Source: Candidatus Electronema sp. PJ
GTDB taxonomy: Bacteria; Desulfobacterota; Desulfobulbia; Desulfobulbales; Desulfobulbaceae
NCBI RefSeq assembly: GCF_048287395.1
Contig: NZ_JBLWEO010000022.1
Coordinates: 641-24,640 of the forward strand
Length of the DNA: 24,000 nt
Reading direction: 5' to 3'
The notes under the pieces were generated by a model. The model did no database searches. It was not told the DNA's origin and was given only the letters and a program-made list of their open reading frames with translations. The translations under genes were made by a program, and so were the position numbers. The first letter of the stretch is position 1, and each line of letters opens with the position of its first letter. Shown in pieces: positions 3,363-18,179 of the stretch.

Positions 3363-5267
3363 CTACTTCACTTCCTCAAAATCCGCATCCACCACATCGT
3401 CATCATCCTTGCCCTTCTTGCCGCCAGCCGCACCTGCGTCAGCACCGGGCGCACCGCCCTGAGAAGCCTGCGCGTACATCAGCTCGGCCAGCTTGTGGGA
3501 AGCCTGGGTCAGCGACTCCGTGGCAGCCTTGATCGCCTCCGCGTCCTCGCTCTCCATCGCCTTCTTCACCTTGCTGATCTCGTTTTCCACATTGCCCTTG
3601 GTCGAGGCATCCACCTTGTCGCCCAAATCCTTCAGGCTCTTTTCGGCCATGTGGACCATCGAATCCGCATGATTGCGGGCCTCGATCACGGCCTTGCGCT
3701 TCTTGTCCTCGTCCGCGTGCAGCTCCGCGTCCTTCTTCATCTTCTCAATCTCCGCCTCGGTCAGGCCGGAAGAGGCGGTGATGCGAATAGACTGCTCCTT
3801 GTTCGTACCCAAGTCTTTGGCGGACACATGCAGAATGCCGTTCGCATCAAGGTCAAAGGTGACTTCGATCTGCGGCACACCGCGCGGCGCAGGCGGAATG
3901 TCATTCAGCTCAAAACGACCAATGGTCTTGTTGTTGGCAGCCATCTCCCGCTCGCCCTGAAGCACGTGGATGGACACGGCAGGCTGGCTGTCAGCGGCAG
4001 TGGACAAGACCTGGCTCTTCTTGGTCGGGACGGTGGTGTTCTTCTCGATCAGCTTGGTCATCACGCCGCCAAGGGTCTCGATGCCCAAGGACAGCGGGGT
4101 GACATCGAGCAGCAGCACGTCCTTCACATCGCCCTTGAGCACGCCGCCCTGAATCGCCGCGCCGACCGCAACCACCTCGTCCGGGTTCACGCCCTTGTGC
4201 GGCTCTTTGCCAAAGATCGCCTTCACCTTCTCCTGCACTTTCGGCATCCGGGTCATGCCGCCGACCAGAATCACTTCGTCAATCTTGGACGGATCGAGTC
4301 CGGCATCCTTGAGCGCGGTGCGGCAAGGGCCTTCGCAACGGTCGATCAGATCAGCGACCAAGGCTTCCAGCTTTGCGCGGGACATCTTGATGTTGAGATG
4401 CTTGGGGCCGGTTGCATCAGCAGTGATGAAGGGTAGGTTGATGTCGGTCTCCAAAGAGGAGGACAGCTCTTTCTTGGCCTTTTCCGCCTCTTCCTTCAGC
4501 CGCTGCAAGGCCATCTTGTCCGTGCGCAGGTCAATGCCGTTGTCGCGCTTGAACTCGTCAGCCAGCCAGTTGACAATACGCATGTCAAAGTCTTCACCGC
4601 CAAGGAAGGTGTCGCCGTTGGTGGATTTGACCTCGAACACGCCGTCGCCGATCTCCAGAATGGACACGTCAAAAGTGCCGCCGCCGAGGTCGAAGACTGC
4701 TACTGTCTCTTCGCCCTTTTTGTCCAAGCCATAAGCGAGGGCGGCGGCGGTCGGCTCGTTGATAATCCGCTGCACGTTGAGGCCAGCAATCTTGCCTGCG
4801 TCCTTGGTCGCTTGGCGCTGGGCATCGTTGAAGTAGGCTGGCACGGTTACGACCGCTTCGGTCACAGGCTCGCCCAGATATTCCTCAGCAGTCTTCTTCA
4901 TCTTGCCAAGAATCATCGCGGAAATCTCAGCCGCCGAGTAGTTCTTGCCTTCGACATTGACCATCGCGTCGCCGTTCGGGCCTTCAACAATGGCGAAGGG
5001 ACTGAGCTGGATGGACTTCTTCACCTCAGGATCAGAGAACTTGCGCCCGATCAGGCGCTTGATCGCAAACAAGGTGCGGGTGGGGTTGGTGACGGCCTGA
5101 CGCTTGGCGATCTGGCCGACCAGCCGCTCGCCGCTGTCGGGAAAAGCGACGATGGACGGGGTGGTGCGGTTACCTTCGCTGTTCTCGATCACCTTGGGGT
5201 CGCCGCCTTCCATGATCGCCACGCAGGAGTTGGTGGTTCCGAGGTCAATGCCGATGATTTTAGCCAT
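3363..5267 (-). CDS. dnaK: Molecular chaperone DnaK (Hsp70)
   Basis: The 634-aa ORF carries the canonical Hsp70 signatures ([28 protein letters not shown]). SD AAGGAGATATAT lies before the ATG at 5267. Confidence 0.98.
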
Positions 5268-5390
5268 GATATATCTCCTTCAATATGTTGTCGTCTGAAC
5301 GGTTCAAAGCTGCCTGCCGCTCTCTACAATGTGCATGAAAATACCGCTGTCAAGGGGACTTGTTCAGCGGCAGCAAGAATTCTGGGCAGG

Positions 5391-6032
5391 CTATTCTGCT
5401 TTCGCCGGGCCGCTGGACACCACCACCTGCGCATGGCGCAGCACCTTGTCCTTGAAGGCGTAACCCTTGGCAAACTCCTTCACCACGTGGTTGGCCGGGA
5501 GTTCCTCGCTGGCTTCCATGGTCAAGGCATCCATCTGATCGGGATTAAACGGCTGGCCGACCGAAGACACCGGGGTTACACCGCAGCGTTCCAGCATGGT
5601 GTCGAGGCCCTTCTTAGTCAGCTCCACGCCTGCCAAGAGCGCGGCCAGCTTCTGCTCCGCATCGCCGCCCTCAACCTTGCCCTGCTCAATGGCCCGCTCT
5701 AAATTATCCGCTGTGTTAAGCAGTTCACGCAGGATGTTCTCGCCCGCATACTTGAGCAGCTTCTCCTTGTCGCGTTCCATCCGCTTGCGCGAGTTCTCGG
5801 CCTCAGCAGCAAAGCGCGTCACCTGATCGAGCTTGGCGCGGGTGTCTTCCAGCTCCTTGGTTAGGGCAGCAAGATCCGGCCCCTGCGCCTCTTCAGCAGC
5901 AGCCTCTTCCACAAGTTCAGCTGACTCGGCAGGAGCAGCTGCCGCTGCTTTGGCCTCCTGCACCTGCTCGCTAGCAGGCTGGGCCTGACTTTCCTCAGTC
6001 ATCTTATTTTCGTTTTTTTTCTCTTCAGCCAC
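5391..6032 (-). CDS. grpE: Nucleotide exchange factor GrpE
   Basis: The 213-aa ORF has an acidic N-terminal extension and a GrpE core (RFAAEAENSRKRMERDKE...FNPDQMDAL...GYAFKDKVLRHAQV). The start is GTG at 6032, with GGGAG 8 nt upstream. Confidence 0.93.
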   Translation of the reverse strand: MAEEKKNENKMTEESQAQPASEQVQEAKAAAAAPAESAELVEEAAAEEAQGPDLAALTKELEDTRAKLDQVTRFAAEAENSRKRMERDKEKLLKYAGENILRELLNTADNLERAIEQGKVEGGDAEQKLAALLAGVELTKKGLDTMLERCGVTPVSSVGQPFNPDQMDALTMEASEELPANHVVKEFAKGYAFKDKVLRHAQVVVSSGPAKAE

Positions 6033-6087
6033 GTATGTTCTCCCTCTCTTGAGCGATGTTCGTCATTGATGCAGCAAATCTGCGGCA

Positions 6088-6116
6088 ACGGTAAGCACAG
6101 GGGAGGGGTGTGTCAA
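6088..6116 (-). promoter_or_regulatory. Candidate sigma70-type promoter for grpE-dnaK
   Basis: On the minus strand, TTGACA (6116-6111) is followed by a 17-nt spacer and TACCGT (6093-6088), about 50 nt upstream of the grpE start. This is a pattern match only. Confidence 0.3.
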
Positions 6117-6182
6117 GGGAAGAACCTGCCAGCGAGAGATTACGGTTTTCAAGAGGAGCGGAAAAACCGATTGGCCAGCCAA

Positions 6183-7202
6183 TCAATTTTTCCTTTTCTG
6201 ATAGACGGACACTGCCCGATTATGCTCCTCTAAGGTGCGGGAGAATTGGTGGCTGCCATCGTTCTTAGAAACAAAGTACAGATAAGGCACTTCCGCCGGA
6301 TGCAGCACTGCCTCTAAAGCTGCTTTGCCGGGATTGCAGATTGGCCCGATAGGCAGGCCGCTGATCACATAGGTATTGTAGGGAGTTTCGGCTAATAGGT
6401 CAGCCTTAGTCAGATTACCGTTGAAATCCTTGATGCCATAGATGGTGGTTGGATCAGATTGTAGGCGCATTCCAATGCGAAGGCGGTTATAAAACACCCC
6501 GGCAATGGTCTTGCGCTCGCTGGCTGCGCCGGTCTCTTTTTCGACTATGGAGGCCAGGATAAGCAGCTGCTGGGGACTATATTTTGCCTCTTGTGCGCTG
6601 AGTTCGGTTGGGTTCAACTCTTTCCAGACCGCGAAAAAACGCCGGACCATGCTGGTAATCAGGATTTGCTCGTCTGTTTCGCCGCGCACCAGGCTGTAGG
6701 TTTCCGGGAAAAGATAGCCTTCGAGCGAGTCTGCTCGCACGCCCAGTTTGTTCAGGAACTTTTTGTCCTGGCAAAGCTGAAGAAACACGGCCCGATCCGC
6801 CCAACCCTGCTTGGCAAAGATGTCGGCAACCTGGGCCATCGTCAGCCCTTCAGGAATTGTCACCCGATACTGAACCGGTTTGGCGGTGTGCAGAAAGCGG
6901 ATCACCTGGAGCGGGGTTAGGCCGAGCGGGACGTGAAATTCACCTGCCCGCAACTTGGGCGGATTATCCCGTTCGATCTCCCGCAGCAGCCGCACTAAGG
7001 CCAAAAAGCGGAGGTCATCTTTGATCACCCCTTTTTCACCGAGCAGGGCCATGATTTGGCGGCTGCCTGCGCCTTTGGGCAGCACAACAAGCACCTCGCC
7101 GTGGCCGGGCAGGGGCTTGAAGACGTAATACGCCAACCAACCTGCGGCGAGCAAGCTGCTGCTCAGAAATAGTACGAAAAGGATGCGGAGAAGCGAACGC
7201 AT
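6183..7202 (-). CDS. mltG: Endolytic murein transglycosylase MltG (YceG-like)
   Basis: The 339-aa ORF has an N-terminal TM anchor and the YceG core (LASIVEKET, VFYNRL..GM.LQSDPT, YNTY...GLP.GPI.NPG). Confidence 0.9.
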   Translation of the reverse strand: MRSLLRILFVLFLSSSLLAAGWLAYYVFKPLPGHGEVLVVLPKGAGSRQIMALLGEKGVIKDDLRFLALVRLLREIERDNPPKLRAGEFHVPLGLTPLQVIRFLHTAKPVQYRVTIPEGLTMAQVADIFAKQGWADRAVFLQLCQDKKFLNKLGVRADSLEGYLFPETYSLVRGETDEQILITSMVRRFFAVWKELNPTELSAQEAKYSPQQLLILASIVEKETGAASERKTIAGVFYNRLRIGMRLQSDPTTIYGIKDFNGNLTKADLLAETPYNTYVISGLPIGPICNPGKAALEAVLHPAEVPYLYFVSKNDGSHQFSRTLEEHNRAVSVYQKRKN

Positions 7203-7289
7203 GAAGAGAACTCTGGCCTAAGTTGCAGTCAATAAACAGGGTTACGGTTTATAGTACAGCAAGCGGTCAGCCAGTTGAAGCGAAAAACG

Positions 7290-7646
7290 AATCTTCCGTA
7301 GTTGTTGGAAGAGCTTGGCAAGGAAGTAAGGCAGGAGTACAGCTCGTTTACAGAGGAGTTTTGCTTGGTAAGAAAGGAGTTGTACTCGGCAGAAGAGGAG
7401 TTTGGCCAAGCCGAACTCCTTTCCTAGTAAGCAACAAAGGAGTTTTGCCGACTCAAACTCCTTTCTGAGTCGGCAAAACTCCTCTGCGGCTTGGCCAAAC
7501 TGCTTTGGTAGTCGGCCAGACTCCTTTTCTGCCGAGCAAGATTCCTTTGCAAGTCGGCAAAACTCCTTTGCGGCCAAGCAGCAAAGAAGTCTTGCCGACT
7601 TCAACTCCTTGGCCAGCGAGTAAGAAAGGAGTCTGGAACGTACCCT
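7290..7646. repeat. Family A 21-nt tandem repeat array, locus 2 (about 17 units)
   Basis: The register is perfectly maintained. GGAG starts at 7334, 7355, 7376, 7397 and 7439. CTCC-type units start at 7416, 7458, 7479, 7521, 7563 and 7605. The array contains an 18-bp perfect hairpin (7438-7455 pairs with 7466-7483; the loop is AACTCCTTTC). Confidence 0.85.
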
Positions 7647-7664
7647 TTCTTGTTGACCGATCTT

Positions 7665-9398
7665 TTACCGATGTTGCTCCCGCTCTCTGCGGAATTTTCT
7701 CGCATTATCCACCCGGTCAGCCCGGAAGGTCGGCTTTTCCTGCACCACTTTGACATCTACTGGCTTGCCATTCACTTTGACTTGCTGAAAAGCGTGGAGT
7801 ATTTGCGGGATAAAACGGCTTTCTCCCTCCAGCATGGCGGTGTTGCGCAGGATTTCGATCTTGCCAACTTTAATCCGCCCGCCGCCAGGTACCTCGTTAA
7901 TGGTGCTGATCAGGTTTTCCGGCAGAATACCGTTGCGGCGACCGACGTTCAAGTGAAATTGGGCGAATTCTTTGCCGATAGACTCGCTGCGCGGGTTGGG
8001 CTTTCGCTCTTCGCCTCGGTTGCTCCGCACACCAAGGCTGGGATGACTGCTGCTGAGTCGCCGCTCAGAAGGTTTGGGGTTGATGTCAGGCGCATTCCGG
8101 TAGTATTCCATGAATCTACCGAATTCGAGCGCGATGATTTTCTTGATCAACTGCTCTTTATCCAGATGCTCAAGCTGGCCAGCGATTTCGCTGTAAAGTG
8201 GCTCGATCTGCTCCTGATCCACGGCTGCGCTGCTCAGGCGCTCAATCAGACTGAAAAGCTGTTTACGGCAGATTTCCTGGCCATTGGGAATCGTGCATTG
8301 CCGGAACTGTCGCTTGAGGCGGCTTTCAATCTGCTTGATCTTATACATATCCCGCGCATCAACCAGAGCCACGGAGATGCCAGTCCGGCCAGCGCGTCCG
8401 GTACGTCCGCTCCGGTGGGTGTAACCGGCAGTATCGTCCGGCAAACTGTAGTTGATCACGTGGGTCAGATCGCTGACGTCCAAACCACGGGCTGCAACAT
8501 CTGTGGCAACCAGGAGCTGGAGATTCCTGCTGTGGAATTTCTTCATCACCAGGTCGCGCTGGGATTGCGTCAGGTCGCCATGTAACGAATCAGCCTTGTA
8601 ACCATCCTGAATCAGTTTGTCGGCAATCTCCTGGGTGTCCATGCGGGTCCGGCAGAAGACGATAGCGTAGATTTCAGGGCAGCTATCCAAGATTCTCTTC
8701 AGAGCTGCATAGCGGTCTCTGGGGTTAATCACATAGTATTCGTGACTGACGTTTTCCGAACCGGCATTGCGCGCCCCGACGGTGATCTCCACCGGGTTGC
8801 TCATATACTTGCTGGCAATGTCCGCAACTTCCCGCGACATTGTTGCGGAAAAAAGCAGGGTGTTTTTCTCGGCTGGGGTCTCACTCAGAATTGCGTTCAG
8901 CTCTTCCTGGAAGCCCATGTTCAGCATCTCGTCAGCCTCATCCAGCACAACAAAGCGAACCGCCGTGATGTCAGCCATTTTCCGCCGGAGCATGTCGCGC
9001 AGTCGCCCTGGGGTCGCGACAATGATCTGCGCACCTCGGCGGAGTTCCCGCATCTGCTGCTCAATGCTCGCGCCACCGTAAATCGCGACAATATTAATCC
9101 CCGGAATATGCCGGGCAAAGGATGCCAAATCTCTGGACACCTGCATACACAGCTCTCTGGTCGGACAAAGCACCAACCCCTGCGTCTGCCTGCTCTTCGG
9201 ATCGATGAGCTGTACCAGCGGGAGGCCGAAGGCTGCGGTCTTGCCGGTTCCGGTCTGGGCCAGACTGACTATGTCCGCATGGTTTTTCAAAATTAACGGA
9301 ATAGCCTGCGCCTGGATGGGGGTAGGCTCGGTGAAGCCCAGATCAGAAAGCGCGGAGATGATTTCGCTGCTGATGCCGAGATCTGCAAATGTGCTCAT
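7665..9398 (-). CDS. deaD: DEAD-box ATP-dependent RNA helicase with C-terminal DbpA-type RNA-binding domain and basic tail
   Basis: Motifs present: Q-motif/GFTEPTPIQ, AQTGTGKT, PTRELC, VLDEADEM (DEAD), SAT, HGDL, YTHRSGRTGRAG. The C-terminal FHLNVGRRNGILPENLI...KVGKIEIL is DbpA-like. The track start (9428) is a TTG; the ATG at 9398 (MSTFADLGIS) is preferred. Confidence 0.9.
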   Translation of the reverse strand: MSTFADLGISSEIISALSDLGFTEPTPIQAQAIPLILKNHADIVSLAQTGTGKTAAFGLPLVQLIDPKSRQTQGLVLCPTRELCMQVSRDLASFARHIPGINIVAIYGGASIEQQMRELRRGAQIIVATPGRLRDMLRRKMADITAVRFVVLDEADEMLNMGFQEELNAILSETPAEKNTLLFSATMSREVADIASKYMSNPVEITVGARNAGSENVSHEYYVINPRDRYAALKRILDSCPEIYAIVFCRTRMDTQEIADKLIQDGYKADSLHGDLTQSQRDLVMKKFHSRNLQLLVATDVAARGLDVSDLTHVINYSLPDDTAGYTHRSGRTGRAGRTGISVALVDARDMYKIKQIESRLKRQFRQCTIPNGQEICRKQLFSLIERLSSAAVDQEQIEPLYSEIAGQLEHLDKEQLIKKIIALEFGRFMEYYRNAPDINPKPSERRLSSSHPSLGVRSNRGEERKPNPRSESIGKEFAQFHLNVGRRNGILPENLISTINEVPGGGRIKVGKIEILRNTAMLEGESRFIPQILHAFQQVKVNGKPVDVKVVQEKPTFRADRVDNARKFRREREQHR

Positions 9399-13880: not shown

Positions 13881-15167
13881 TCAATACCGGTAGTAATCCG
13901 GCTTGTATGGCCCATCAACATTTACGCCAATATAGGTTGCTTGCTCTTTGCTCAGAGTGGTCAACCGGGCATTGATCTTCTGGAGATGGAGCCTGGCCAC
14001 CATCTCGTCGAGCTTCTTCGGCAGGAAATAAACCTGCTTCTCGTAGAGATTGGAGTTGTTCCACAGCTCCATCTGCGCCAGAACTTGGTTGGTAAAGGAG
14101 TTACTCATCACAAAGCTCGGATGCCCTGTGGCACAGCCGAGGTTCACCAGTCTGCCCTCAGCCAGGACAATGATGCGCTTGCCATTCGGAAAGATCACAT
14201 GATCGACCTGGGGTTTAATGTTCTCCCAAGGCAGCTCACGGATACTGGCGATATCTATTTCCGAGTCAAAATGACCGATGTTGCAAACGATGGCCTGGTC
14301 TTTCATCACGTCCATGTGCAATCTGGTGATGACGCGCACATTGCCTGTACAGGTTACAAAGATGTCGCCAATGGGTGCAGCTTCCTCCATAGTCATTACC
14401 CGGTAGCCTTCCATGGCCGCTTGCAGGGCGCAGATCGGGTCGATCTCCGTTACACAGACCACTGCACCCATGCTGCGCAGTGCCTGGGCACAGCCTTTGC
14501 CCACATCCCCATAACCAGCGACCACCGCCACTTTCCCGGCAATCATCACATCCGTGGCTCGCTTGATGCCATCAATCAACGACTCTCGACACCCATAGAG
14601 ATTATCGAACTTCGACTTTGTCACCGAGTCATTGACATTGATCGCCGGAGCCAGCAGCTTGCCTGCCTTGGCCATTTCATTCAGCCGATGCACACCTGTG
14701 GTGGTTTCCTCGGAGATGCCGCGAATCTCCTGCATCAGCTCTGGGTACTTCTCGTGCATGATCTGGGTAAGGTCGCCACCATCATCGAGGATCATGTTTG
14801 GCTTCCAACCATTCGGCCCAAAGATCGTCTGCTCGATGCACCACCAGAACTCCTCCTCAGTTTCTCCCTTCCAAGCGAAAGTCGGGATGCCAGCCTTCGC
14901 CATAGCTGCTGCCGCATGGTCTTGGGTAGAGAAAATATTGCAGGACGACCAGCGCAGCTCCGCACCCAGCTCAACCAGGGTCTCCATCAGCACAGCAGTC
15001 TGGATTGTCATGTGGAGGCAGCCCGCTATGCGCGCACCTTTGAGGGGCTTATCATGGCCGTACTCCGTGCGCAACGTCATCAGGCCCGGCATCTCAGTTT
15101 CAGCAATCGCGACTTCCTTGCGGCCCCATTCAGCCAAACTCATATCTGCTACTTTATAATCATTCAT
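13881..15167 (-). CDS. ahcY: Adenosylhomocysteinase (S-adenosyl-L-homocysteine hydrolase)
   Basis: Typical SahH sequence ([33 protein letters not shown] site, [15 protein letters not shown]-terminus). The track start (15212) is a TTG. The ATG at 15167 has TAGGAGCAACCCG immediately upstream. Confidence 0.95.
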
Positions 15168-15476
15168 CGGGTTGCTCCTATCGTTGGTTATTGATTGCAA
15201 GATTTCAGGCAAGGCTCATTGAGCTTCCTGAGTATTACCATACTTACTGCGCAAAAAGCACGTATATTACCATGCCAAGCCAGGGTTCACAGCATATCTC
15301 GCAACCTCAAATCGCTTTCAGGATAACCAAGAAGGCCTTCAGCTTACCCGCGTATGCTTCCTGAGCTGGCTGAGGAGTCTCCTGCTAACTCAAGACAAAC
15401 TCGTCAGCTGCCGCCATTGCTGCCAGGACAACCGGGAATCCTACGAATTTTCAGCAGTGGTCATGCAGAACAACCA

Positions 15477-15875
15477 AGTTGGTCTGCATTCAGAAGCACT
15501 TTTGCATCTTCCGAAGTAGCATTCACTCGTTTGAAAGCTGGCAACAGACGTGTGGATACTCTATTCAGACATATAAACAGAGCATTTACTCGTTTGTTTG
15601 GAGCATTCAGATGTATGAAATGAGCTTTTGCATGTTCAAAAGCAGCATTCACTCGTTTGAAAGATGGCAACGGACGTGTGAACAGAGCTTTTGGATGTCC
15701 AGAAACAGTGCTCACTCGTTTGTTAAGAGGATTTGGATATCTAAAAGCTCTATTTAGACATATAAATGGAGTGTTCATACGTTTGAATGCAGCATTTACT
15801 CGTCTGTTTGCTCATAACAAACGAGTGAATACTCCAAGCACTCGTTGAAAAACTGTTTGCACACGAGCAAAAACC
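15477..15875. repeat. Family B 21-nt tandem repeat array with 63-nt higher-order period (about 19 units)
   Basis: The unit is about GCATTCACTCGTTTGAAAGNN. Best-conserved copies start at 15519, 15582, 15645, 15708 and 15771 (63-nt steps), then 15792. Weaker units fill every 21-nt slot. An inverted unit (CAAACGAGTGAAT, 15818-15830) lies near the right end. All six frames are largely free of stop codons, as expected for a repeat. Confidence 0.85.
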
Positions 15876-15888
15876 GGGCCGAAACCTG

Positions 15889-16005
15889 CTAAACCACCTT
15901 CCCTTGCTGCCCTGCCAGCTTTTCCTTCAGCGTGGCGTGGTTTTTCTGAACAAGATCAATATTTGGATGGCCGCCGGGGAATTTATTGTTCATGATGGCA
16001 ATGAT
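15889..16005 (-). pseudogene. Relic 2 of a TPR-protein C-terminus
   Basis: The minus-strand frame reads IIAIMNNKFPGGHPNIDLVQKNHATLKEKLAGQQGKVV*. This aligns with the C-terminus of the 16932-18179 protein (ILQAKLPAGHSRISGCQKDYDEMKEKMAGL). An in-frame stop lies immediately upstream. Confidence 0.45.
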
Positions 16006-16012
16006 TCATTCC

Positions 16013-16075
16013 GTAGGGGCAAGCCCCTGTGCTTGCCCTAAGACATTCCGGGCAGGCACAGGGGCCTGCCCCTAC
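16013..16075. repeat. GTAGGGGC...GCCCCTAC palindromic (REP-like) element
   Basis: GTAGGGGCAAGCCCCTGTGCTTGCCC (16013-16038) and GGGCAGGCACAGGGGCCTGCCCCTAC (16050-16075) are inverted repeats with 2 mismatches and an 11-nt loop. The right arm overlaps the stop codon of relic 1. Confidence 0.75.
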
Positions 16076-16206
16076 ACCCCCGCCATCTTCTCCTTCATCT
16101 CATCGCAGTCCTTCTGGCAGCCGATGATGCGCGAATGCCCGGCAGGGAATTTTACCTGCATGATGGCCAAGGCGCGTTGGTGCAGCAGCTCGTCTTTCTC
16201 GTGCAT
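16072..16206 (-). pseudogene. Relic 1 of the TPR-gene 3' end
   Basis: The segment 16066-16180 aligns base-for-base with 16926-17040. There are only 3 mismatches in the first ~75 nt, and it decays after that. It translates as ...LLHQRALAIMQVKFPAGHSRIIGCQKDCDEMKEKMAGV*. An upstream in-frame stop lies at 16255-16257. Confidence 0.65.
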
Positions 16207-16278
16207 CACAGCCTGCGGGCCGTTCCTTGCGCATATTCCTTCCTCGCTTTCCCCTCAGCTTGCTGAAATAGCTCCAAA

Positions 16279-16548
16279 TCACTTTTTGAACAGCTCGGAA
16301 TGTGAACCTGTCCGCTCCAAAAACAGATCATCGCCAACATATCGGTAGATCAGAATCCAGTCCGGTTCAATATGGCAATCACGGTGTCCTTTCCACTTGC
16401 CTGTCAGCTGATGATCCCGATACTTGGGAGGCGGAGCTTCCCCCTGCAACAGCATTTCGACAACCTCTCTGAGTTTGACAATATCTCTGTTCTGTTTCTG
16501 AGCCTTTTTGTAATCCCGTTTGAACTGCCCGGTGTAATGCAGATTCAA
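16279..16548 (-). CDS. yafQ: Type II toxin, YafQ/RelE-family mRNA interferase
   Basis: The 89-aa ORF closely parallels E. coli YafQ (YKDH.L.G.WKG.RD.H.EPDWILIY...ERTG.H..LF). Confidence 0.85.
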   Translation of the reverse strand: MNLHYTGQFKRDYKKAQKQNRDIVKLREVVEMLLQGEAPPPKYRDHQLTGKWKGHRDCHIEPDWILIYRYVGDDLFLERTGSHSELFKK

Positions 16549-16805
16549 TTGTCCAGCTCCTGGAACAGCTCGTCAACAGAGGCAGCCTGCCGGACATCCT
16601 TTCCCTGTTCGGCAGCGGCCAAAGTTTTTGCCGTTACCTTGTTGGGGATTTTGACCTCAAAGGGAATTTTTTGCTGCTGTGCAATTTGGGACAGATAGAG
16701 CGAGATTGCCTCGGCCATAGACATGTTCAGCCTCCTGAGCACTTTCCTGGCATTCTGCTTGATCTCCGGGTCAACGCGGGTATGAACGGCTGCTGTCTTC
16801 AACAT
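16545..16805 (-). CDS. dinJ: Type II antitoxin, DinJ/RelB family
   Basis: The 86-aa ORF has an RHH-type N-terminus (VHTRVDPEIKQNARKVLRRLNMSMAEAISLYL) and IPFEV like DinJ. It has a 4-nt ATGA overlap with yafQ. Confidence 0.85.
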   Translation of the reverse strand: MLKTAAVHTRVDPEIKQNARKVLRRLNMSMAEAISLYLSQIAQQQKIPFEVKIPNKVTAKTLAAAEQGKDVRQAASVDELFQELDN

Positions 16806-16907
16806 AATATACTCCTGATGGGTTGGTTGTGCTTGAACAGGGTGTTCACAAGCAGTCTATCTCTTTCTTTGCAGCGAGACAAGCAGGCGGACGAACGGAT
16901 GCACCCT

Positions 16908-16935
16908 GTAAGGGCGTTTCGCGAAACGCCCCTAC
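16908..16935. repeat. GTAGGGGC-type palindrome at the TPR gene stop
   Basis: On the minus strand, GTAGGGGCGTTTCGCGAAACGCCCTTAC. The TAG stop (16932-16934) is embedded in the left arm, the same arrangement as at 16072-16075. Confidence 0.6.
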
Positions 16936-18179
16936 AACCCCGCCATCTTCTCCTTCATCTCATCGTAGTCCTTCTGGCAGCCGCTGATGCGCGAATGCCC
17001 GGCAGGAAGTTTTGCCTGCAAGATGGACAGGGCGCGTTGGAACAGTGGCTCCGCTTCCTCGTATCGTCCTTGATCGCGGTAGAGATTGGCTAAGGTACGT
17101 AAGGTGGTTGTCACATGCGAATGCTCTTTGCCTAGAGCTTGCTCAAAAATCTCCAGTGAGCGCTTGCACAGCGGCTCGGCTTCGGCATATCTTCCTTGGT
17201 AGCGGTAGAGATTGGCCAGAGTGCGCAGAATAGCGGCCACATGCAAATATTCTATGCCAGTAGCTTGCTCCCAAATCTCCAGTGAACGCTTATACAGCGG
17301 CTCGGCGGCATTGTATCTGCCCTGATACTCATAACACCACGCCAGTTCATGCGCTGCGCGAGCAAAATCAAGTCCGTCTTTGTCCTCCTCTTCCCTTATT
17401 CGCAGCAGCCGTTCCAGCCATTCCTGCGCCTGTGCATGGTTGAATAGCGTCCTAGCCATCTGTCCTGCCGCCAGCAAATAGTCCGGGTTGTCCCTCTCCA
17501 GCAGCACGGCTACCCGGTATAGCTCCATCGCCTCGGCATAGTTCACTTCGCTTTCGGCCAGCTTCCCTTCGTGGTGCGCCGCCAAGGCCGCCGCTTTGCC
17601 CGCCTGCTTGCGCACCTCGGCAAAGGTCTCTTTCGCCGCCTTGGTGTCGCCCTGCCGCAGACTGACCTGCGCCTTTTCGATCCGCGCATCCGGCATCTGG
17701 CATTTCATCTGGTCAAGAGCCTCGTCCGCAGCCTTGCGGCGCAGCTGCTCCTCCTTCCAGCTCTCCCGGATGTCGGTCAAATGCTCCTGCACCCCCTGCA
17801 ACTGCGCTTCAAGAAGCTGCCGCTGCTTGTCGTCGGCCATTGAACCGGAGGCTTGCAGATCAAGAATCTGCTGGCGCAGGGTTTTCAGCTCCTCCTCATA
17901 CTGACGCATCCCGTCGGGCTTGTCCGCTGGCTTCCAGTTCTTGACTTTATCGGCGATAAAAAACAAGAAAGCAAGCATCGCAGGAATCCAAACAGCCTTG
18001 TCATCCTTGCCCAAGAAGATCACAGCGGCCATGACGAAGAGGATAAGGAAGAAAATTAGATGCGGCAGCCGTCCTTTGCGCTCGCCGCATTTGAGCAGCA
18101 GGGCAAAAACAAGCAGGCTGTAGCAAATCAACAGCAGCGGCTGCTGATATTGGGTTATCCAGACGCTCGCATTCTTCAT
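16932..18179 (-). CDS. Membrane-anchored coiled-coil / TPR-repeat protein (kinesin-light-chain-like TPR_10/12 repeats)
   Basis: GGAGG lies 9 nt before the ATG. There are three N-terminal TM helices and a coiled-coil segment of about 100 aa. Tandem 42-aa TPR pairs follow (LANLYRYQGRYAEAEPLCKRSLEIFEQALGKEH...). Confidence 0.85.
   Translation of the reverse strand: MKNASVWITQYQQPLLLICYSLLVFALLLKCGERKGRLPHLIFFLILFVMAAVIFLGKDDKAVWIPAMLAFLFFIADKVKNWKPADKPDGMRQYEEELKTLRQQILDLQASGSMADDKQRQLLEAQLQGVQEHLTDIRESWKEEQLRRKAADEALDQMKCQMPDARIEKAQVSLRQGDTKAAKETFAEVRKQAGKAAALAAHHEGKLAESEVNYAEAMELYRVAVLLERDNPDYLLAAGQMARTLFNHAQAQEWLERLLRIREEEDKDGLDFARAAHELAWCYEYQGRYNAAEPLYKRSLEIWEQATGIEYLHVAAILRTLANLYRYQGRYAEAEPLCKRSLEIFEQALGKEHSHVTTTLRTLANLYRDQGRYEEAEPLFQRALSILQAKLPAGHSRISGCQKDYDEMKEKMAGL

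Follow-up and report, generated by a model that had tools for sequence, protein, structure and literature searches.

The stretch of DNA analyzed here, referred to as the window, comprises 24,000 nt from the freshwater cable bacterium Candidatus Electronema sp. PJ (Desulfobulbaceae), and our attention was focused on a repeat array, family B, found at positions 15477-15875. The AhcY and MltG proteins encoded in the window are 100% identical to NCBI proteins of this organism, from a contig of 43,879 nt. The array is chromosomal and lies upstream of ahcY. As had been described in the initial annotation of this DNA, it is located on the margin of an accessory patch that contains relics of tetratricopeptide repeat (TPR) genes, a palindrome resembling repetitive extragenic palindromic (REP) elements and a toxin-antitoxin module, here RelB/YafQ; this patch is rearranged. 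We are highly confident that the array represents an untranslated chromosomal minisatellite, in which imperfect palindromes of 21 bp follow each other head to tail, and that it belongs to an apparently low-copy family of the Desulfobulbaceae. The region is organized as follows:

13881-15167, minus strand: ahcY (adenosylhomocysteinase)
Between ahcY and the array: spacer of 310 nt, counted from the ahcY start
15461-15778, minus strand: ATG open reading frame (ORF) of 105 aa made of FKRVNAx heptads, overlapping the array, without a Shine-Dalgarno (SD) sequence
15477-15875: family B array, about 18-19 abutting 21-bp units, window consensus GCATTCACACGTTTGAAAGCA
15499-15624: first copy of a 126-bp higher-order repeat, 69.8% identical to the second copy over 126 nt (38 differences)
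15519-15539, plus strand: strong unit GCATTCACTCGTTTGAAAGCT, a sub-variant in which TCGT replaces the consensus ACGT
15582-15602, plus strand: strong unit GCATTTACTCGTTTGTTTGGA
15625-15750: second copy of the 126-bp higher-order repeat
15645-15665, plus strand: strong unit GCATTCACTCGTTTGAAAGAT, 19/19 identical to the unit at 15519
15708-15728, plus strand: strong unit GTGCTCACTCGTTTGTTAAGA
15794-15830: terminal hairpin, formed by the unit at 15792 and an inverted unit at 15813-15833 (CAAACGAGTGAAT)
15889-15993, minus strand: first relic of a TPR-protein C-terminus, 14 nt from the array
16013-16075: GTAG-headed REP-like palindrome, a separate repeat class outside the array
16072-16209, minus strand: second relic of a TPR-protein C-terminus
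16279-16805, minus strand: yafQ and relB, 400 nt from the array
16932-18179, minus strand: TPR gene
Next after this TPR gene in the window, plus strand: folE2

Autocorrelation over 15477-15875 gave values of 0.479, 0.473, 0.491, 0.438, 0.463 and 0.538 at lags of 21, 42, 63, 84, 105 and 126 nt, respectively, against a background mean of 0.259 and a 95th percentile of the shuffle maximum of 0.344. Peaks were confined to multiples of 21, and no 7-nt sub-period was found over the same interval. The 63-nt super-period put forward in the initial annotation holds in part, as Tandem Repeats Finder reports a period-63 array (15499-15722, 3.6 copies, 65% matches, score 156) and lag 63 is among the autocorrelation peaks, but the strongest higher-order period is 126 nt, that is, a block of six units within which the strong units recur each 63 nt. 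The first 56 nt of the two 126-nt copies (15499-15554 and 15625-15680) are 89% identical. Moreover, GCATTCACTCGTTTGAAAG is indeed identical in 19 of 19 positions at 15519 and 15645, and the related units reported at 15582, 15708, 15771 and 15792 were recovered, all of them in the 21-nt register. With up to one mismatch allowed, CACTCGTTTG occurs five times in the 24-kb window, where 1.42 copies are expected, and all five lie inside the array, four on the plus strand and one on the minus strand (15818-15827). Every 21-nt slot of the array holds a repeat variant and the units are contiguous, which does not correspond to the layout of clustered regularly interspaced short palindromic repeats, with their unique spacers. 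The GC content is lower in this region (0.43-0.47) than around it (roughly 0.5-0.6).

The array is not unique to this strain. Related arrays were found at three additional loci:

L013, 4775-5083: in a Desulfobulbaceae metagenome-assembled genome (MAG), between an S-adenosylmethionine decarboxylase gene and a gene for a leucine-rich repeat (LRR) protein of LRR-Roc-COR type (5172-8000)
L038, about 540-1084: array of 26 or more units that alternate with a 42-nt period, flanked by a TPR gene and mazE
L001, about 400-890: array with a 105-nt higher-order repeat, upstream of a TPR gene

By blastn, the L013 array is 73% identical to the window array over 131 nt. A hidden Markov model (HMM) of the family was trained on the window, L013 and L038 arrays, with L001 held out of the training; it finds the L001 array at E=2.7e-8, and it has no other match in the sequence scanned. 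Family B is, therefore, an apparently low-copy repeat family located at non-orthologous intergenic sites in several cable bacteria and in other Desulfobulbaceae assemblies. In three of the four cases, a TPR_12-type gene or relic is located no more than about 100 nt from the array (window 15889-15993; L001 959-2898; L038 1126-1683), while the fourth array, that of L013, adjoins the LRR-Roc-COR gene. Family B arrays may be associated with fast-evolving repeat-protein genes, although the window and L001 share a homologous module and are not independent: the 3' part of the TPR gene, relB and yafQ of L001 are 95% identical to those of the window. In addition, 42-nt arrays with two alternating palindromes, CCATCCAAACGTTTGGATGG and one of the CCGTTCCC...GGGAATG type, were found in two contigs of the Trout Bog Lake hypolimnion (L060 823-1160; L067 1231-1503). 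The first of these units is a perfect palindrome of family B type; both arrays fall below the threshold of the family HMM. Searching metagenomes with a degenerate two-unit DNA pattern returned mostly TG-rich low-complexity matches, L060 and L067 being the exceptions.

Two properties had been missed in the initial annotation, namely the palindromic nature of the unit and the status of the strong core, which is no more than a sub-variant of the consensus of the family. The consensus derived from all slots of the window, L013 and L038 arrays, GCwTTCAnACGTnTGAAwGC followed by one base (A), is a near-perfect 20-bp palindrome centred on ACGT, while the individual units are imperfect palindromes. Consensus units built array by array are nearly identical to each other (GCATTCACACGTTTGAAAGCA in the window, GCATTCATACGTTTGAAAGGA in L013 and GCATACAGACGTCTGTAAGCA in L038), and the strong core CACTCGTTTG is one base off the family consensus (ACGT to TCGT), which makes it a local sub-variant. 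Within-unit Watson-Crick pairing amounts to 51% in the window array and to 72% (75/104) in the L067 array. As for single units, GCTTTTGCATGTTCAAAAGC folds into a hairpin of -5.6 kcal/mol and the strong units into hairpins of -0.6 to -1.9 kcal/mol. The possibility that every unit is a stable mini-hairpin was rejected, as only some units fold and pairing is no better than the column composition predicts. On the two sides of the ACGT dyad, the conservation profile mirrors itself (pooled r=0.66, permutation p=0.016), most clearly in L038 alone (r=0.85, p=0.0016); the two least conserved positions of the unit, 8 and 13, are dyad partners, and the profiles of the different arrays are correlated with each other (r=0.48-0.59). 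Such symmetry is what a dimeric DNA-binding protein would impose, unlike neutral decay or a free-loop hairpin, and is modest evidence of constraint. At the end of the array, the inverted unit does pair with the preceding one, as had been claimed, in a 14-bp hairpin (-7.0 kcal/mol as DNA, z -2.0). The polarity switch seen there in the initial annotation exists in so far as an inverted unit is present, but in family B it is largely explained by the unit being palindromic, because an inverted unit is then almost the same as a direct one.

Taken as a whole, the reading that we favor, at roughly even odds, is that of a minisatellite of phased dyad-symmetric sites which acts as DNA if it acts at all. 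Judging from the anatomy of the array, its units would have been multiplied by slipped-strand or unequal recombination, and the ACGT to TCGT variant would then have been amplified in blocks of three and six units, resulting in the strong-weak-weak appearance and in the 126-bp higher-order repeat. That the array actually works as DNA, and not as RNA or protein, by presenting a row of dyad-symmetric sites, is a more tentative proposal that we consider possible. In such a row, successive dyad centres would be two helical turns apart and would face the same side of the duplex. A dimeric DNA-binding protein could occupy the row cooperatively, or the row could extrude hairpins or cruciforms. The effect would be local, on the region upstream of ahcY or on the adjacent TPR/toxin-antitoxin patch. 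Iteron-like protein binding, for which a test had been suggested in the initial annotation, appears plausible from the dyad symmetry of the units, their spacing of two helical turns and their dyad-symmetric conservation profile, although no rep or par gene lies nearby.

A protein-coding heptad repeat, translated either from the 105-aa minus-strand ORF or from the plus strand with read-through of a single stop, is the least probable of the alternatives, and in our view is close to negligible. Its appeal comes from a period that is a multiple of three, from open frames of 105, 111 and 148 aa over the window, L013 and L038 arrays, and from a database protein, P0002, that is annotated as a gene and that was confirmed to be an ORF called over the L038 array. 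The initial annotation had found no stop-free frame with a convincing start or SD here, which is correct in substance, since no SD sequence was found in any frame. Several frames are nevertheless open: besides the minus-strand ORF, the plus strand has a frame of AFTRLxx heptads interrupted by one TGA at 15621, and a further ORF of 92 aa. However, several overlapping long ORFs are to be expected because the consensus unit has no stops in four of the six frames, and we judge the 105-aa ORF to be a by-product of this stop-poor unit and not a gene. The 38 differences between the 126-nt copies are distributed over the codon phases as 12/12/14, with synonymous to nonsynonymous ratios of 3:22 in the AFTRLxx frame and 2:22 in the frame of the minus-strand ORF, which is not the synonymous variation of a conserved protein. 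Moreover, no 3-nt rhythm is seen in the positional information content, and the sites that would be third codon positions in the AFTRL frame rank among the best conserved. No homologue of the plus-frame translation was found among 5.8 billion proteins. The 105-aa ORF has eight matches among 1.8 billion representative proteins, five of which are long tail-fibre-like proteins with ANxAF heptads (phmmer E=1e-13) that have only the F-x3-N spacing in common with it; of the others, one is P0002 and another, P0005, looks like an ORF call over a similar array. There are no real protein homologues. A metagenome pseudo-protein search yielded 129 candidates, none of which was confirmed by tblastn. The array is noncoding and untranslated. 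A structured RNA, working as a multi-hairpin mRNA stabilizer or insulator, or as a small RNA or protein sponge, and transcribed together with its co-directional neighbors or alone, has somewhat more in its favor than a protein, but is still unlikely. All four family B arrays lie between genes of the same orientation, REP elements act partly as RNA, and the predicted RNA fold is far better than that of shuffled sequences (z -6.6 on the plus strand and -7.6 on the minus strand). Good folds on both strands are, however, automatic when the units are tandem palindromes. Within-unit pairing (0.56) is hardly above what column composition predicts (0.53), and G-T and A-C mismatches are equally frequent, so that there is no sign of strand-specific RNA structure under selection. 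The Rfam 15 covariance models gave no match at the gathering score either in the window or in 17 related loci, promoter-like and terminator-like matches are at chance level, and no intrinsic terminator was found.

The array could also represent the iterons or the centromere of an integrated plasmid or phage, with Rep-type or ParR/ParB-type sites left beside the toxin-antitoxin module. Its unit length and contiguity resemble those of the R6K 22-bp iterons and of the pSK41 20-bp or F sopC repeats, the RelB/YafQ module lies nearby and is found in other contexts too, and a MazE gene adjoins the L038 array. Nevertheless, this origin is very improbable: a Pfam scan of 20 window ORFs detected no Rep, ParA/B/R, integrase or phage gene, blastn against 72,556 plasmids and 50,697 phages gave no match to the array, the units are palindromes and not asymmetric direct repeats, and the neighbors of the L013 and L001 arrays are chromosomal genes. 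The alternative that deserves most attention is that of a functionless by-product, that is, a slippage-prone palindromic satellite in a rearranged patch, whose conserved positions reflect ancestry and mutation bias. We regard it as a possible explanation, though a less probable one than the reading that we favor, and the following observations weigh against the latter, speak for the by-product, or do both. The array is built of highly degenerate units (48% identity at lag 21), the strong units alone form only the weak hairpins given above, and dyad-symmetric conservation is borderline in the window (r=0.54, p=0.053) and absent in L013. With the family HMM, a single array is detected in the 24-kb window and none across 126 kb of sequence from four other genomes of Electronema, from which it follows that family B is apparently low-copy and patchy. 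Three other Electronema genomes lack the array in front of ahcY, which makes it dispensable for this gene, and no orthologous copy was found in other Electronema genomes. In a syntenic pair of Acidobacteriota genomes with 21-nt arrays of their own, one array differs by 9.0%, as compared to 10-13% at the third codon positions of flanking genes, and a second array gained or lost two units between the two genomes. This pattern fits weak or no constraint; purifying selection on the arrays was unsupported in this comparison, with divergence near the synonymous rate. In addition, C/T transitions are frequent at the positions that vary most, gene relics and a mobile toxin-antitoxin module adjoin the array, and the function of the array is something that we infer entirely. 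On the other hand, the same palindromic consensus has been kept in four independent assemblies and at different loci, the arrays agree in their conservation profiles (r about 0.5-0.6), and the mirror symmetry of these profiles about the dyad is not predicted by neutral decay.

Regarding the surroundings of the array, the segment with relB-yafQ and the 3' end of the TPR gene (16261-17152) is 95-98% identical to metagenome contigs L001-L006. On those contigs the gene next to this module is a genX-like tRNA-synt_2 gene, which implies that the module has moved or has been duplicated. Synteny around ahcY and mltG is scrambled in every Electronema genome compared (L034-L037, L159-L161), despite AhcY identities of 94-96%, and the differing neighbors leave no orthologous comparison of the family B locus possible. 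Inside the TPR gene, a 126-nt tandem repeat at 17042-17306 (2.1 copies, 77% matches) probably reflects duplicated TPR_12 repeats of 42 aa. The GTAG-headed palindrome is flanked by the two TPR C-terminus relics; it reads GTAGGGGCAAGCCCCTGTGCTTGCCC...GGGCAGGCACAGGGGCCTGCCCCTAC, and its DNA fold reaches -30.1 kcal/mol (z -7.1), while Rfam gave only chance-level matches of miRNA type for it. Further sites of this palindrome are found at about 16928-16935 (minus strand) in the window and in L037 (9905-9975), L014 (7373-7429) and L029 (5349 and 5612). Its head, GTAGGGGC, is present in three copies between metK and ahcY of Ca. E. halotolerans, and also adjoins 21-nt arrays in Acidobacteriota.

The window holds a second kind of 21-nt repeat, family A, with which family B had been compared in the initial annotation:

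1104-1451 and 7223-7678: family A arrays, two long inverted arms
6183-7202, minus strand: mltG

The two families are unrelated in sequence, as had been stated (best ungapped match 11/21, shuffle p=0.38). They are alike in having a 21/42-nt period, in lying between co-directional genes, in being strongly self-complementary and in having units in both orientations, but family A consists of two long inverted arms, whereas family B is a row of self-palindromic units. The RNA fold of family A has a z of -10.7, and CTCC or GGAG is present in its loops. Read on the minus (sense) strand, the loops contain AAGGAG or AAGGAA, which resemble SD sequences or CsrA-type GGA motifs. The further suggestion of a mechanism or structural constraint common to both families has not been established: the period of 21 nt and the self-complementarity are indeed shared, but arrays of 23 nt exist too. 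In lag scans of cable-bacterial sequence, lags of 21 and 42 nt yielded arrays and lags of 19, 20, 22, 25, 40 and 44 nt yielded none; two short arrays of 23-nt period are present in other genomes of Electronema (L037 12049-12140; L159 15736-15896). The 21-nt period is therefore favored, but not exclusive, among the intergenic repeats of cable bacteria. As in PJ, mltG of Electronema sp. V4 has a 21-nt array immediately upstream (L160 9640-9916), diverged but similar to family A, and with a different neighbor on its other side. The 21/63-nt signal downstream of mltG in Ca. E. aureum (L159 11347-11781) was rejected as a noncoding array, since it corresponds to a real protein, small, secreted and rich in Ala, Glu and Thr, with 21-aa repeats and a signal peptide.

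Arrays of this period are also found far outside the Desulfobulbaceae. We scanned the genomes of 185,579 species for pairs of ACTCGTTTG cores at a distance of 63 nt and obtained 25 loci, about 19 of which are noncoding 21/42/63-nt arrays, often with orientation switches, in Acidobacteriota (eight loci in one MAG), Spartobacteria, Cyanobacteria, Bacteroidota, Kapaibacterium and Kribbella; a control with viral contigs gave too few matches to be informative. These noncoding arrays comprise L008, L011, L014, L021, L022, L024 and L029 in the Acidobacteriota genome BP_59, and L010, L017, L019, L015, L016, L018, L023, L020, L028, L007, L027 and L012 elsewhere. Blocks of inverted units are frequent in them, and in BP_59 the unit is CTACCCACTCGTTTGAGCCAG, with 20-nt variants that break all reading frames. 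Deep conservation of ACTCGTTTG across phyla was, however, rejected. The scan was seeded on a sub-variant specific to the window (the family consensus has ACGT and not TCGT), its pattern forces periods that divide 63, about nine random matches are expected, and the family HMM detects none of the scanned loci. The cross-phylum matches are probably an ascertainment effect, and these arrays are treated here as independent repeat families.

A broader proposal would be that families A and B, together with the 21-nt arrays of Acidobacteriota, Verrucomicrobia, Cyanobacteria and Bacteroidota, form one unrecognised class of helically phased DNA element. We consider this improbable. Such a class would consist of tandem arrays, often of dyad-symmetric units with orientation switches, that would nucleate cooperative nucleoprotein filaments or cruciforms; if it were real, its members might function as insulators between domains, as sinks for supercoiling or as hot-spots of recombination, and in cable bacteria they would prefer sites beside fast-evolving TPR, LRR and toxin-antitoxin genes and synteny breakpoints. 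Cable bacteria are without pure culture and their genomes are heavily rearranged. A catalogue of their noncoding repeats helps to avoid false gene calls; family B arrays have in fact been annotated as hypothetical proteins, as in the case of P0002. These arrays also help to explain assembly breaks and synteny breakpoints, and could be employed as variable-number markers for strain typing. If phased sites for a dimeric protein were proven, they would point to a lineage-specific nucleoid or regulatory protein.

A literature search returned no published description of these arrays, and family B was compared with known systems. In filamentous cyanobacteria, small dispersed repeats (SDR, 21-27 nt) occur mostly as dispersed single insertions, and short tandemly repeated repetitive (STRR) sequences are heptameric. 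Both share with family B the condition of very short noncoding repeats in multicellular filamentous bacteria, with a unit size of about 21 nt (in SDR) and often palindromic units as further common features, but family B forms a long contiguous array, unlike SDR, and has no 7-nt sub-period, unlike STRR. Among plasmid elements, the R6K gamma origin contains seven contiguous 22-bp iterons, the F sopC centromere has 12 repeats of 43 bp, each with a palindrome, and the pSK41 parC centromere is made of 20-bp repeats. As in family B, the length of the tandem unit corresponds to about two helical turns or a multiple of this, which keeps the units in helical phase and places protein-binding sites (putative ones in family B) on one face of the DNA, and in F sopC the repeat unit likewise contains a palindrome. 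Family B differs in having no rep or par gene nearby, in occupying non-orthologous chromosomal sites with about 18-19 very degenerate units, and in its lack of sequence similarity to any plasmid or phage record searched.

REP elements have a GTAG or GTGG head that is recognized by the REP-associated tyrosine transposase (RAYT), and are present in tens to hundreds of copies per genome. Tandem clusters of REP elements and of REPINs (REP doublets forming hairpins) have been described and are the nearest documented analogue of family B (PMC3116915). Like it, the REPs, bacterial interspersed mosaic elements (BIMEs) and REPINs of gamma-proteobacteria are short imperfect extragenic palindromes clustered in both orientations, noncoding, hairpin-prone and inclined to lie between co-directional genes. 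Family B departs from REPs and BIMEs in that its units abut at a strict 21-bp period without linkers, that no GTAG or GTGG head was found at the unit ends, and that its copy number is so far low, with one array in the window and none in the 126 kb of relatives. On these grounds, we judge family B to resemble REP/BIME clusters, contiguous iterons and centromere repeats while apparently being a member of none of them, as the GTAG/GTGG head recognized by RAYT is lacking at its unit ends and no rep or par gene was found among the ORFs of the window. As it stands, family B represents no new principle, but a lineage-specific relative of the well-known intergenic palindromic repeats.

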